Source: Escherichia phage B9-1. From it: a stretch of 64,000 nucleotides of DNA. The stretch lies in sequence record OQ420740.1. One strand, given 5' to 3'. Numbering within the stretch: position 1 is the first letter of the stretch; each line of letters begins with the position of its first letter. The translations under genes and the position numbers were made by a program. This document shows positions 28,451-31,862 of this stretch, one piece after another. Below the pieces are notes generated by a model that saw only the letters and a program-made list of their open reading frames with translations, did not search any database and had not been told where the DNA came from.

Positions 28451-29794
28451 ATGAGTAAAACCAAATTAGAACTTACCTGGATAGGTAAGAACGAGCGCAA
28501 AAAGCTAGAGCCTCACATTTTGCGAGAAGATTCGAGCAAGTCTTATCACGCCAGTAAAAAGGTGACCGAAAACGATATTTTTGATAATAAACTGATTTTT
28601 GGAGATAACTTACTGGCATTGAAGGCACTAGAGCAAGAGTATGCAGGCAAAGTGAAGTGTGTTTACATAGACCCGCCATTTAATACCGGAAGGGATTTTG
28701 AGCACTACGATGATAGCCTGGAGCACTCCATTTGGCTGGGCTTAATGCGGGACAGATTAGAAATAATTCGTAATCTGCTAAGCGATGATGGAGTGATATT
28801 CGTTCACTTAGATGACTGCGAAATGGCTTATTTAAAAGTCTTGATGGACGAGATTTTTGGTCGTGCAAATCAGTTAAATACCATATCGATGACTACAAAT
28901 TGCCCTTCAGGCTTTAAGGCAACAGGAACTACAGTTTTCTCCACAGCAAACTTTTTGCTTGTATATGCAAAAGATCGTACCAAGAAACCACTTAACAAAA
29001 TCTATATACCTAAAGAGTATGATACGGGATATAACAAATATCTATTAAACCCAGATGACCATTATAAAAGTTGGACGTGGTGCGGTATTGCCGATGCGTT
29101 TGCAAAGGCCAATGGCTATAAAGATACAAAAGAAGCCAAGAAAAAACTGCCTGATACATTTGATGATGAATTAGCACAATTTGCAATTGATAATGCAGAA
29201 CGTGTATTTCAATCCGTTGCAATTGGCGGTGGTGCCAAAATAAAGAGAAAAGAAACTATCGAGAAGTCAAAGAAAGATAGGGATAAGGTTTATGTACATC
29301 CAAATGAGGATGTCGAAGGCTTTTATATCGCAAATGGTAGGCAAATGGTCTTTTATTCCAATAGGCTTTTGGAAATTGACGGTGAGATGCAGCCTGCTGA
29401 ACTAATAACTGATGTTTGGACTGACATTAGTTGGAATGGAATAGCAAATGAAGGGGGCGTTAGTTTCAAAAATGGAAAAAAACCTGAAGCGCTTTTGAAG
29501 CGGATTTTAAAAATGTGTACGCGAGAAGGAGATTTAGTATTGGATTCATTCGGCGGTTCGGGGACTACTGCTGCTGTAGCTCACAAGATGAAAAGACGTT
29601 GGATCTCTGTTGAGCTAGGAGATCATTGTCATACCCATATTATTCCACGCTTGCAAAAAGTGATCGATGGTGAAGATCAAAGTGGTATTTCTAAATCTGT
29701 AAACTGGCAAGGTGGTGGGGGCTTTCGTTATTACAAACTTGCCCAGAACTTAGTTGTGAAAGATAAGCTTGACTCAGAAGAAGATTTAGAGTAA
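28451..29794 (+). CDS. DNA methyltransferase (beta-class N6-adenine/N4-cytosine, Mod-like)
   Basis: 447 aa; catalytic motif IV DPPF (VYIDPPFNTG) near the N-terminus and SAM motif I FGGSGTT near the C-terminus (beta-class order). Confidence 0.7.
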   Translation: MSKTKLELTWIGKNERKKLEPHILREDSSKSYHASKKVTENDIFDNKLIFGDNLLALKALEQEYAGKVKCVYIDPPFNTGRDFEHYDDSLEHSIWLGLMRDRLEIIRNLLSDDGVIFVHLDDCEMAYLKVLMDEIFGRANQLNTISMTTNCPSGFKATGTTVFSTANFLLVYAKDRTKKPLNKIYIPKEYDTGYNKYLLNPDDHYKSWTWCGIADAFAKANGYKDTKEAKKKLPDTFDDELAQFAIDNAERVFQSVAIGGGAKIKRKETIEKSKKDRDKVYVHPNEDVEGFYIANGRQMVFYSNRLLEIDGEMQPAELITDVWTDISWNGIANEGGVSFKNGKKPEALLKRILKMCTREGDLVLDSFGGSGTTAAVAHKMKRRWISVELGDHCHTHIIPRLQKVIDGEDQSGISKSVNWQGGGGFRYYKLAQNLVVKDKLDSEEDLE

Positions 29795-29850
29795 TATTTA
29801 AAATATCGAAGGAGAGGTCTACTCTTAACACAAGATAAGGAGAACACCGA

Positions 29851-30156
29851 ATGATGAAGCGTTATAAACCATATACTTTTGAAATCGATTTCGAACTTGA
29901 CAATATGCTCACTGTAGAGGCTCAGGCAGTTGTCCAGTTGCCAGATCCAGAGTGCCGTGATTCTGATGTTGATTATTATGGATTTAGACAGATTACTGAT
30001 GTGCATGTTTACCACAACGGAGAAGAGGTGGATTTTCACCAACTGCCGAACGATATGCGCCACTCGATTTACAAACGGGCAGCACGTGAACTAGAGTCCT
30101 ATCTGGATGCAGCAACAACAGCGGCTGCATTTGCTGAAGAGACAGGAGGTTTCTGA
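29851..30156 (+). CDS. hypothetical protein
   Basis: 101 aa, SD AAGGAGA. Confidence 0.5.
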   Translation: MMKRYKPYTFEIDFELDNMLTVEAQAVVQLPDPECRDSDVDYYGFRQITDVHVYHNGEEVDFHQLPNDMRHSIYKRAARELESYLDAATTAAAFAEETGGF

Positions 30157-30551
30157 TGATTACAGATGTGAAGATTATCCAATACCACCTAACCAAATTA
30201 GAAGATGCTGAAAAAGAGCTTTCAGAAGTTCTGAACAGTGGGTATACTTTACTGACATGCTCCTGTTCAGACACATACATTGTGTGGACACTTGCTAAGA
30301 AGGAAGAACCAGCAGGAATCTTGGTGCCAAACCCTAAGATTATTAGTGAGGTGGACGACTACTCTCAGGATGGCCTACCAGAAGGCTGGGAAACATGGGA
30401 AGGTGGTGAAAACCCTGCACCAGGTAAGTGGGTAAAATACAAACTACGTAGCGGTGCACAGTATGCTGACTACTCTGATGACCTAGACTGGAGTCACTCT
30501 TCACCAGGATCATCTGCAAGTGCATATGATATTGTTGCTTTTCAGGAATAA
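30156..30551 (+). CDS. hypothetical protein
   Basis: 131 aa, SD AGGAGG, ATGA overlap. Confidence 0.5.
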   Translation: MITDVKIIQYHLTKLEDAEKELSEVLNSGYTLLTCSCSDTYIVWTLAKKEEPAGILVPNPKIISEVDDYSQDGLPEGWETWEGGENPAPGKWVKYKLRSGAQYADYSDDLDWSHSSPGSSASAYDIVAFQE

Positions 30552-30563
30552 GGAGAGAGTGTT

Positions 30564-31046
30564 ATGTCAGATTTTATGTGGAAGGTAGGCTACGCTGCTC
30601 CCGAGATGTGCAAGGCCTGCTTTGTGAAAATAGGCCGCGAGGATATCGACAAAGTTATCTTTAAGTTTCGTGATGTGGCTGTAATCGGCAACCGAGTGCT
30701 TAAGCACTTAAAAAATCTGAAACTCACCAAAAAGAAATTCTTCGGGCTTTTTGAAGAGAAAGTTGATGCTTGGACCCATTGCATTCAGGAAGCTAAATCT
30801 CACTACAGTGCTATTGTTACTCCAGAACGGGTAGCCAAGATGGAAGGATTCATCAACAGCACGGAGTTTGAGTGCTTAAAAGCTGCCCTTGATAGTTATC
30901 CAAAGTGCCTCAAACATCTCGACAAGTATGTAGAAGAGGATGGGGAAATGTATCTCACTCTGGATGCATACTATGAGATGCAAGAAATTTTAAATTTAGA
31001 TTTGACATTGGTATCCACCGAGTATACAATAGGTATCCGGGTTTAA
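30564..31046 (+). CDS. hypothetical protein
   Basis: 160 aa, SD AAGGAGA. Confidence 0.55.
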   Translation: MSDFMWKVGYAAPEMCKACFVKIGREDIDKVIFKFRDVAVIGNRVLKHLKNLKLTKKKFFGLFEEKVDAWTHCIQEAKSHYSAIVTPERVAKMEGFINSTEFECLKAALDSYPKCLKHLDKYVEEDGEMYLTLDAYYEMQEILNLDLTLVSTEYTIGIRV

Positions 31047-31052
31047 CACTAG

Positions 31053-31080
31053 GCCCTGCCCGAAAGGGTGGGGCTTTTTG
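31053..31080 (+). terminator. rho-independent terminator (copy 1 of a duplicated hairpin)
   Basis: GCCCTGCCCGAAAGGGTGGGGC (9-bp stem with 2 G-U pairs, GAAA loop) then TTTTTG; same hairpin recurs at 41199. Confidence 0.65.
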
Positions 31081-31097
31081 CATTAGGAGACAGCAAA

Positions 31098-31862
31098 TTG
31101 AAATTTATCTACAAAGAACACTACCACAAAGGTGTTGTGTGGAGTCTATTTGACGGGTCTGGTGGTGCAGTTATTGACTGGGCAAAAGCTGGATATCTGT
31201 GCCTGTGCTTTAACGCAGAAGGTGCTGACCATGGCAGTTATGCAGAGGTGATAACCGATCATCCCAACATTCACTACGTGGATTATTGGATTGACCCGTG
31301 GTTCCCTCAAGAAACTTTTTGCATGTACCCAGCTCCAGACTTTATTCTTGCATTTCCTCCGTGCACGCATTTAGCAGTATCAGGTGCTGCACATTTTAAG
31401 AAAAAGCTGGCTAAGGACCCTCTGATTCAAATTAATGCTGTAAAAGATGCTCGGGTTGCAGAAGAGTTGGGAGAGATTTACGATTGCCCGTGGCATGTAG
31501 AGAATCCTGTGGGAGTTATGTCCACACTGTGGCGAAAACCTGATTACCGTTTTCATCCTTCAGATTATGGCGGGTATTTACCGGAGGATGATGTAAACCC
31601 CTGGTTTCCTGAATTTATAGCTCCACGGGATGCCTACCCAAAAATAACTTGCGGTTGGATAGGCAATGGATTTATAATCCCCGCCACAAAACCTGTCCCG
31701 CAAATAGTTGATGTGGTTAGTGGTTATTCCATGCAACACGCTAAGCTAGGTGGAAAGAGTGCAAGGACGAAGATGATTCGAAGCCTTACACCACGTGGCT
31801 GGGCAAGAGCTGTATTCTTAGCAAACGAGCCTGCAGTAAGGAGAAGAATTAATGGGCAGTAA
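31098..31862 (+). CDS. C5-cytosine methyltransferase-like protein (minimal catalytic domain)
   Basis: TTG start after SD AGGAGA; ordered motifs LFDGSGG (motif I-like), FPPCTHLAVSG (PC, motif IV-like) and ENPVG (motif VI-like); only ~255 aa with no obvious target-recognition domain. Confidence 0.45.
   Translation: MKFIYKEHYHKGVVWSLFDGSGGAVIDWAKAGYLCLCFNAEGADHGSYAEVITDHPNIHYVDYWIDPWFPQETFCMYPAPDFILAFPPCTHLAVSGAAHFKKKLAKDPLIQINAVKDARVAEELGEIYDCPWHVENPVGVMSTLWRKPDYRFHPSDYGGYLPEDDVNPWFPEFIAPRDAYPKITCGWIGNGFIIPATKPVPQIVDVVSGYSMQHAKLGGKSARTKMIRSLTPRGWARAVFLANEPAVRRRINGQ

Follow-up and report, generated by a model that had tools for sequence, protein, structure and literature searches.

An orphan Mod-like and a compact Dcm-like methyltransferase gene in the replication module of Escherichia phage B9-1

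The DNA analysed here (hereafter, the window) is a 64,000-nucleotide stretch of Escherichia phage B9-1 (sequence record OQ420740.1). Between positions 28451 and 31862, it carries two genes for predicted DNA methyltransferases, called here gene A and gene B. The reading favoured below, to which a probability of about 0.8 is assigned, is that both encode ordinary, previously annotated phage DNA methyltransferases and belong to the replication module of a Vequintavirus; gene A would be an orphan member of the Type III Mod lineage, and gene B a compact C5-cytosine enzyme of the Dcm family. A preliminary description, drawn from the letters alone, had identified a beta-class amino-methyltransferase and a minimal C5-methyltransferase-like protein, and both of these identities are correct.

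The window comes from a Vequintavirus, an rV5-like lytic E. coli myovirus of 136 kb. Over the 6 kb around both genes, it shares 98.5% identity with Escherichia phage ECP2303 and about 93% with phage rV5. The genes of the replication module follow one another as rIIB-like, PIF1/Dda-like helicase, a small open reading frame (ORF), gene A, three small ORFs, gene B, primase/helicase, and DNA polymerase. The features of gene A, including its motif for binding S-adenosylmethionine (SAM), are as follows.

28451..29794, plus strand: gene A, predicted orphan Type III Mod-like beta-class amino DNA methyltransferase of 447 aa with an ATG start (PF01555, PADLOC MTase_III, phrog_67)
28670..28681, plus strand: gene A motif IV, DPPF (catalytic), aa 74-77, placed by sequence position and aligning with the DPPY of Mod and EcoP15I Mod
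29549..29569, plus strand: gene A motif I, FGGSGTT (SAM binding), aa 367-373, aligning with the F(A/G)GSGTT of Mod proteins, CcrM, and M.MboIIA

The position of DPPF (motif IV) N-terminal to FGGSGTT (motif I) gives gene A the beta-class order, just as the preliminary description had read it. Its identity is backed by the Pfam family PF01555 (150 bits against a cut-off of 26.7; E 9.8e-44) and by the PADLOC Type III profile MTase_III PDLC03636 (E 6e-203), which is matched from position 2 to 445 of 575; gene A also matches phrog_67 (E 6e-65). Among solved structures, gene A is most closely related to Mod 6k0w (E 2e-29) and to EcoP15I Mod 4zcf (E 6.5e-23), with which the motifs DPP[FY] and F[AG]GSGTT align. 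Besides these motifs and their order, gene A shares with the Type III Mod proteins a central target-recognition domain (TRD) and a nearly full-length profile match. It differs from them in that it ends at position 445 of the profile, so that the C-terminal part is missing, and in that it is an orphan encoded by a lytic phage. No Res (helicase-nuclease) subunit was found near gene A, whose neighbours are the PIF1/Dda-like SF1 helicase gene (PF05970, phrog_325) and small ORFs of unknown function. Thus, judged from its sequence, gene A is classed as an orphan, Mod-derived, beta-class amino-methyltransferase. Its product is probably N6-methyladenine (m6A), which is favoured by DPPF and by the kinship with Mod, given what is known of this family. 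Most likely, the enzyme would transfer a methyl group from SAM to the N6 of adenine at a short site on the phage DNA. The G+C content of gene A (0.392; 0.355 at third codon positions) is the lowest of the replication module, the flanking helicase, primase, and polymerase genes having values of 0.45 to 0.46. This low value suggests that gene A was acquired horizontally.

The features of gene B, read against an alignment of 68 homologs, are listed here.

31098..31862, plus strand: gene B, compact Dcm-like C5-cytosine DNA methyltransferase (phrog_757/K42-Dcm family), 254 aa, TTG start
31146..31166, plus strand: gene B motif I, LFDGSGG (SAM-binding loop), aa 17-23; F18, G20, S21, and G22 at least 90% conserved in the 68 homologs
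31353..31373, plus strand: gene B motif IV, FPPCTHL, aa 86-92, with the catalytic Cys89; P87, P88, and C89 invariant in the 68 homologs
31500..31514, plus strand: gene B motif VI, ENPVG, aa 135-139, with Glu135; E135, N136, and P137 invariant in the 68 homologs
31554..31646, plus strand: family-specific conserved insertion in the motif VIII loop of gene B, aa 153-183, ending in K182, a candidate DNA-contact element (mean top-residue frequency 0.79 in A2)
31683..31739, plus strand: variable 19-residue segment of gene B, aa 196-214, lying where a TRD would lie, a putative "mini-TRD" (top-residue frequency 0.46 in A2 and 0.28 in A3)
31776..31805, plus strand: conserved IRSLTPRGWA of gene B at the start of the C-terminal helix; R228, S229, and R233 invariant, and T231, P232, and G234 at least 90% conserved in the 68 homologs

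As had been noticed at the outset, LFDGSGG, FPPCTHL, and ENPVG follow one another in the order of C5-methyltransferase motifs I, IV, and VI, within a protein of 254 aa (about 255 had been estimated). Across the six reading frames of the window, there is a single occurrence of the ordered pattern F.G.G...PC...EN[VP]. P88 and C89 are also more than 85% conserved in a diverse set of the family. K182 is invariant in the 68 homologs; the strand in which it lies reads PK182-I-T-C-G-W, with T184 conserved and without an RxR. Toward the C-terminus, where motifs were mapped by comparing the family profile with PDB sequences, by hhalign against the verified M.HhaI (HhaI) sequence, and from the PF00145 coordinates of homologs, IRSLTPRGWA resembles motif IX (RxLTPRE) in sequence and motif X of DNMT3 (GRSW) in position; the profile comparisons left this region unaligned.

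Similarity to known C5-methyltransferases is faint at the level of the single sequence. A phmmer search of gene B against the PDB gave a marginal motif I match to HaeIII and nothing else. A profile of close homologs (A1) searched against PDB sequences had as its sole weak matches C5-methyltransferases, with motifs I and IV in register, and motif I of gene B aligns in register with that of DNMT3B, HaeIII, and HhaI. The Pfam family of the classical enzymes, PF00145, is matched individually by 14 of 24 close homologs of gene B. Of the family members scanned individually, three (P0053, P0067, and P0069) pass the PF00145 gathering cut-off of 22 bits with scores of 24.7 to 28.5, over profile positions 4-94 only.

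The AlphaFold2 model of gene B, built with the 68 sequences, is confident, with a predicted local distance difference test score of 91.1 and a predicted TM score of 0.90; it contains the catalytic-domain fold of C5-methyltransferases; the fold match is specific, and Foldseek agrees. In the structural ranking, the DNA enzymes DNMT3B, 3g7u, and DNMT3A score above Dnmt2. The closest structural neighbours are the catalytic domains of DNMT3A and DNMT3B (6u8p, 4u7t), although sequence identity to them is only about 14%, and gene B is even shorter, with a unique conserved insertion in its motif VIII loop.

Comparison with HhaI brings out the compactness of gene B. Motif I begins at residue 18 in both proteins. 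From the motif VIII strand to motif X and the C-terminal helix (residues 233-251 of the gene B model), however, there are 42 residues in gene B (counted from strand 7) versus 131 in HhaI. Conversely, the motif VIII loop of gene B carries a 30-residue insertion (153-183) versus about 10 residues in HhaI. Gene B further differs from enzymes of the E. coli Dcm/M.HhaI type (PF00145) in lacking a PF00145 match of its own, QxRxR, and GN(S/A)V. Within the family, internal variability is confined to the 67-81 loop and residues 196-214, and both the 153-183 insertion and the KLGGKSxRTKxIRSLTPRG stretch are conserved as highly as the catalytic motifs. The earlier impression that gene B lacks a TRD is therefore essentially right, since the sole variable part in the shortened segment is 19 residues long. 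Gene B is a C5-cytosine-methyltransferase-like protein without a canonical TRD.

This compactness is not peculiar to the window. Gene B matches phrog_757, labelled "DNA methyltransferase", with an E value of 5.8e-87 over residues 10-262 of the 264-aa form of its ORF, and its relatives form more than 4183 clusters when grouped at 90% identity and 1013 when grouped at 50%. Among the best 150 of these 1013 relatives, nearly all are 210-260 aa long. Thus, to the extent that sequence comparison can tell, the short length is native, a trait of the family rather than the outcome of truncation. Of 50,697 phage records, 1505 contain a member of the family, for the most part those of Drexlerviridae, Klebsiella Webervirus, Dhillonvirus, and Vequintavirinae; in other words, it is very common, being found in about 3% of sequenced phages, chiefly those of E. 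coli, Klebsiella, and Salmonella. Among known C5-methyltransferase architectures, it is the smallest. A helicase gene adjoins the homologs of gene B in each of the four phage groups that were examined.

One member of the family has been characterised biochemically. The 711-bp "dcm" of phage K42, which is 95.4% identical to the BASEL phage KarlJaspers, is the trigger of retron Ec86 (Eco1), and escape mutants disrupt this gene (bioRxiv 10.1101/2023.08.16.553469). When K42 Dcm was expressed, liquid chromatography coupled to mass spectrometry (LC-MS) detected 5-methylcytosine (5mC) on the multicopy single-stranded DNA (msDNA) of the retron, and none was detected with a C82A/E128A/K175A/K176A mutant. 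Changing the CCTGG of the msDNA to AATGG, ACTGG, or CATGG abolished defence and triggering. Together, this work describes a SAM-type C5 methylation of cytosine in duplex DNA, for which the enzyme needs its Pro-Cys, Glu, and Lys residues; the authors modelled the enzyme on DNMT3A (all bioRxiv 10.1101/2023.08.16.553469). A later paper takes the K42 Dcm/retron result as established (PMC12916289). The title of the published version of the retron Ec86 study turns up in many papers, where it is presumably cited.

Gene B is 54% identical over 235 residues to the KarlJaspers protein bas06_0055 (711 bp; E 9e-87), whose C82, E128, and K175 align with C89, E135, and K182 of gene B. Given the 5mC detected with K42 Dcm and this alignment of catalytic residues, gene B belongs to a family with a demonstrated 5mC-forming member. 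The two proteins, K42/KarlJaspers (Bas06) Dcm with 236 aa and gene B with 254, have identical spacing of the Cys, Glu, and Lys residues, share the helicase neighbourhood, and both model best onto DNMT3A/3B. They differ in their phages, a Drexlerviridae siphovirus for the former and a Vequintavirus myovirus for the latter, and in the segment corresponding to residues 196-214, which is of the YSMQH type versus the DNPGW type.

Closer relatives leave little doubt that the gene has been noticed before. The orthologs rV5 gp226 (YP_002003728) and MaxBurger bas54_0074, both of phrog_757, are about 97% identical to gene B, begin with the same TTG, lie between ORF232 and the primase/helicase gene, and show no substantive difference from it; some records call the protein hypothetical or use a longer GTG start. 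In public records of near-identical phages, gene B is labelled "DNA methyltransferase", "DNA cytosine methyltransferase", or "Dcm-like C5 cytosine methyltransferase", and papers on Vequintavirinae genomes reached the same assignment with HHpred (PMC11370258; PMC7344957). Both gene A and gene B are already annotated in such records, and neither is new. The locus therefore carries little weight as a discovery, since both genes are annotated in many near-identical genomes and the compact family has a biochemically tested member with a described role as the trigger of retron Ec86.

A mechanism can be proposed for gene B by analogy with C5-methyltransferases in general. Cys89 would attack C6 of a flipped-out cytosine, Glu135 of the ENP motif would activate the ring, and the methyl group would pass to C5. 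Lacking the TRD of about 90 residues that classical enzymes have, the protein would recognise its site through the 30-residue motif VIII insertion, the variable 19-residue segment, and the basic KLGGKSxRTK stretch, and it may act as a dimer, as DNMT3A/3B do. Extrapolating from the K42 homolog, its target is probably narrow and Dcm-like (CCWGG). The gene would be co-expressed with the primase/helicase gene, with which its last 11 nt overlap (ATG at 31852), and the two are probably coupled in translation; such coupling would lead to the marking of newly replicated phage DNA. The mark would protect sites of the CCWGG type, would be tolerated by E. coli, and would expose the phage to retron Ec86.

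The last of these consequences bears on host range. E. coli B/BL21 natively carries retron Ec86 (bioRxiv 10.1101/2023.08.16.553469), and gene B could make Vequintaviruses visible to it. Vequintavirinae are reported to be unable to infect E. coli B, a failure that the BASEL study attributes to receptors (PMC8594841); retron Ec86 might contribute to this failure beside the receptors. The gene B family is a liability marker for retron defence and, as such, is relevant to the choice of therapeutic phages.

Several points weigh against the favoured reading. Gene B itself has no match in Pfam, NCBIfam, or PADLOC, failing every curated C5-methyltransferase profile, and alignments of its family to the classical enzymes cover motifs I-IV only. 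The preliminary description had named a lack of C5 profile similarity as a finding that would refute the identification; such a lack holds, narrowly, for the protein of the window, and it does not hold for the 14 close homologs that match PF00145 or for the specific fold match. The classical motif VIII Arg and motif X Asn have no clear counterparts in gene B, and K176 of K42 Dcm, one of the four residues replaced in the inactive mutant, corresponds to Ile183. The CCWGG specificity of K42 Dcm was assumed from the host Dcm and tested through retron triggering alone rather than genome-wide, in a host, MG1655, that has a Dcm of its own (bioRxiv 10.1101/2023.08.16.553469). The literature searches made yielded no specific methylation data for this phage or any Vequintavirus and no restriction-digest data for rV5-like phages; the DruSM1 preprint proved to have no bearing on the matter. 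The benefit of gene B to the phage is not obvious, given that the Vequintavirinae are very sensitive to all the restriction-modification (RM) systems tested. As for gene A, it might in principle methylate the N4 of cytosine rather than the N6 of adenine.

How widely gene B methylates is the question on which alternatives to a narrow target turn. A broad-specificity or non-specific cytosine methylase, modifying most cytosines and serving as a general anti-restriction device, would have no need of a TRD, and the want of a canonical one in gene B fits such an enzyme, as does the conservation, rather than hypervariability, of the C-terminal half across the family; a precedent is M.EcoGII, a non-specific adenine methylase from a prophage (PMC5778455). 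This possibility, which the preliminary description had raised, is nevertheless very unlikely, for it conflicts with three lines of evidence. The Vequintavirinae are "exceptionally susceptible" to RM systems of types I, II, and III (PMC8594841). The window strongly avoids several cytosine-containing sites, and blanket 5mC would make such avoidance needless: RCCGGY occurs once among 100 CCGG sites where 14-36 are expected, and TGGCCA, CGATCG, and GGCGCC are absent, as are GCTAGC and CTCGAG (4-10 expected of each of the five). GTAC, CTAG, and ACGT are depleted in the window as well. Finally, triggering of retron Ec86 by the K42 homolog hinges on a single CCTGG site. Moreover, such phages are routinely isolated on K-12 MG1655, which carries McrBC and so restricts DNA with abundant R(5mC). 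A narrow specificity escapes these objections. CCWGG is not avoided in the window (138 sites; observed/expected ratio 0.90, compared with 0.95 for GATC), and the RM systems of the BASEL study reportedly include no CCWGG enzyme, so the sensitivity of these phages argues against broad protection and not against a narrow protection at CCWGG. In E. coli, methylation at CCWGG does no harm, since the host itself methylates these sites and McrBC does not target C(5mC)WGG; this would explain the plating of such phages on K-12. Taken together, this analysis indicates that the specificity of gene B is probably narrow and CCWGG-like. A variant in which the compact phage "Dcm" family reads DNA unlike the classical enzymes, by means of the motif VIII insertion and the 19-residue mini-TRD and perhaps as a DNMT3-like dimer or coupled to the replicative helicase, is unlikely; its target might then be another short motif, or hemimethylated or fork DNA, instead of CCWGG.

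Other alternatives concern the chemistry or the substrate. Gene B could install a different C5 modification, for example 5-carboxymethylcytosine made from carboxy-SAM (Cx-SAM), a CmoA product, as phage CmoX does. A fold match to CmoX (8yf3) and Arg233 prompted this reading: R233 opens the C-terminal helix of gene B roughly where CmoX has its carboxylate-binding Arg350, and E. coli supplies Cx-SAM. DNMT3A has an Arg at the same place (GRSW), yet uses SAM, and R233 is less than 85% conserved in the diverse family alignment. CmoX, with a 333-residue chain, is about 80 residues longer than gene B and is GC-specific, and it is recognised by the signature SPPC, an Arg replacing the motif X Asn, and a CmoA/CmoY neighbourhood (PMC12783734). 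Gene B has FPPC instead, and the annotation of the close relative NHEP1 shows neither a CmoA or CmoY-type gene nor a ligase in the 20 kb to either side. The 54%-identical K42 Dcm yields plain 5mC by LC-MS, a result that also conflicts with the earlier proposal of some different pyrimidine-modifying enzyme. The CmoX-like reading was rejected as the main one and is extremely unlikely. A substrate other than duplex phage DNA (tRNA, as for Dnmt2; single-stranded or hairpin DNA at forks; or a regulatory role) is hinted at by the linkage of gene B to helicase genes, by the fact that the sole demonstrated substrate of its family is retron msDNA, a stem-loop, and by there being no known RM-protection phenotype for gene B. 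Set against this, the methylated part of msDNA is a double-stranded stem with a Dcm site, Dnmt2 is outscored by DNMT3B, 3g7u, and DNMT3A in the fold match, and the TRD with the CFT motif that is familiar from Dnmt2 is absent. Nothing specific supports an RNA or fork-DNA substrate, and it seems highly improbable. Finally, gene B might be a catalytically dead methyltransferase fold kept because it binds DNA or plays a structural part in replication, as its failure to match curated profiles and the loss of Cys and Glu in the distant members P0263, P0265, and P0229 might suggest; the invariance of C89, E135, N136, and P137 and the at least 90% conservation of the motif I glycines in the 68 homologs, gene B included, together with the activity of K42 Dcm, leave this reading next to no probability.

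In P0263, P0265, and P0229, PPS or PPG replaces Pro-Cys and xNPA replaces ENP, and the N-termini are extended by long low-complexity stretches; these proteins are probably derivatives of the gene B family that have lost activity. Another member, P0250, carries an HNH_2 nuclease domain fused to its C-terminus. In other phage groups, small genes of the HNH or "restriction endonuclease" kind are frequent immediate neighbours of gene B homologs, as in phage B2 (L004), mar001J1 (L005), and Pantoea AH01 (L006), and these neighbours may be homing endonucleases or functional partners.

A split C5-methyltransferase of the M.AquI type, with the 101-aa ORF at 29851-30156 as the partner of gene B, was considered and rejected. 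This ORF (phrog_4240) is confined to Vequintavirus and a few Erwinia phages (121 phage records versus 1505 for gene B), and no conserved partner that could supply a TRD or motifs IX-X was found beside the homologs of gene B in the other phage groups examined. The ORF shows weak matches to two small PHROGs labelled "DNA methyltransferase", phrog_1573 (E 3e-6) and phrog_2060, yet no methyltransferase motif can be recognised in it; those labels may have spilled over from other annotations.

The start of gene B is preceded by several putative signals.

31002..31030, plus strand: sigma-70-like promoter, TTGACA-17-TACAAT, lying within the upstream ORF at its 3' end, with 11 of 12 consensus matches
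31051..31079, plus strand: terminator-like G+C-rich hairpin and T run between the stop of the upstream ORF (31046) and gene B, with the stem-loop at 31051-31076
31085..31089, plus strand: Shine-Dalgarno sequence AGGAG, 8 nt before the TTG of gene B, read from the sequence

The mechanically called ORF for gene B runs from a GTG at 31068 to 31862 (264 aa), with the TTG at 31098 in frame. The TTG is the better start, because the GTG falls within the 3' arm of the hairpin. The same TTG start (765 nt) is used in public records of rV5 gp226 and MaxBurger bas54_0074. The statement that gene B begins at a TTG just after a terminator is thus borne out by the stem-loop with its TTTTT and by the AGGAG. 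The hairpin has 11 pairs (7 of them G-C) and a GAAA loop, and its RNA fold has an energy of -22.8 kcal/mol (z = -2.6 versus shuffles). In the rV5 record, the site equivalent to the promoter is labelled P231. The promoter lies only about 20 nt upstream of the hairpin, which would occupy about +14 to +39 of transcripts from this promoter. Possible roles of the hairpin are the termination of transcripts from upstream, attenuation of the P231-equivalent promoter, or stabilisation of the 5' end.

A final observation concerns the public records that resemble this region. Between 16 and 39 GenBank records of the MG0656xx series, titled "Campylobacter phage" (host Campylobacter jejuni), are 92-97% identical here to E. 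coli Vequintaviruses, and because of this identity their assignment to Campylobacter jejuni looks doubtful.

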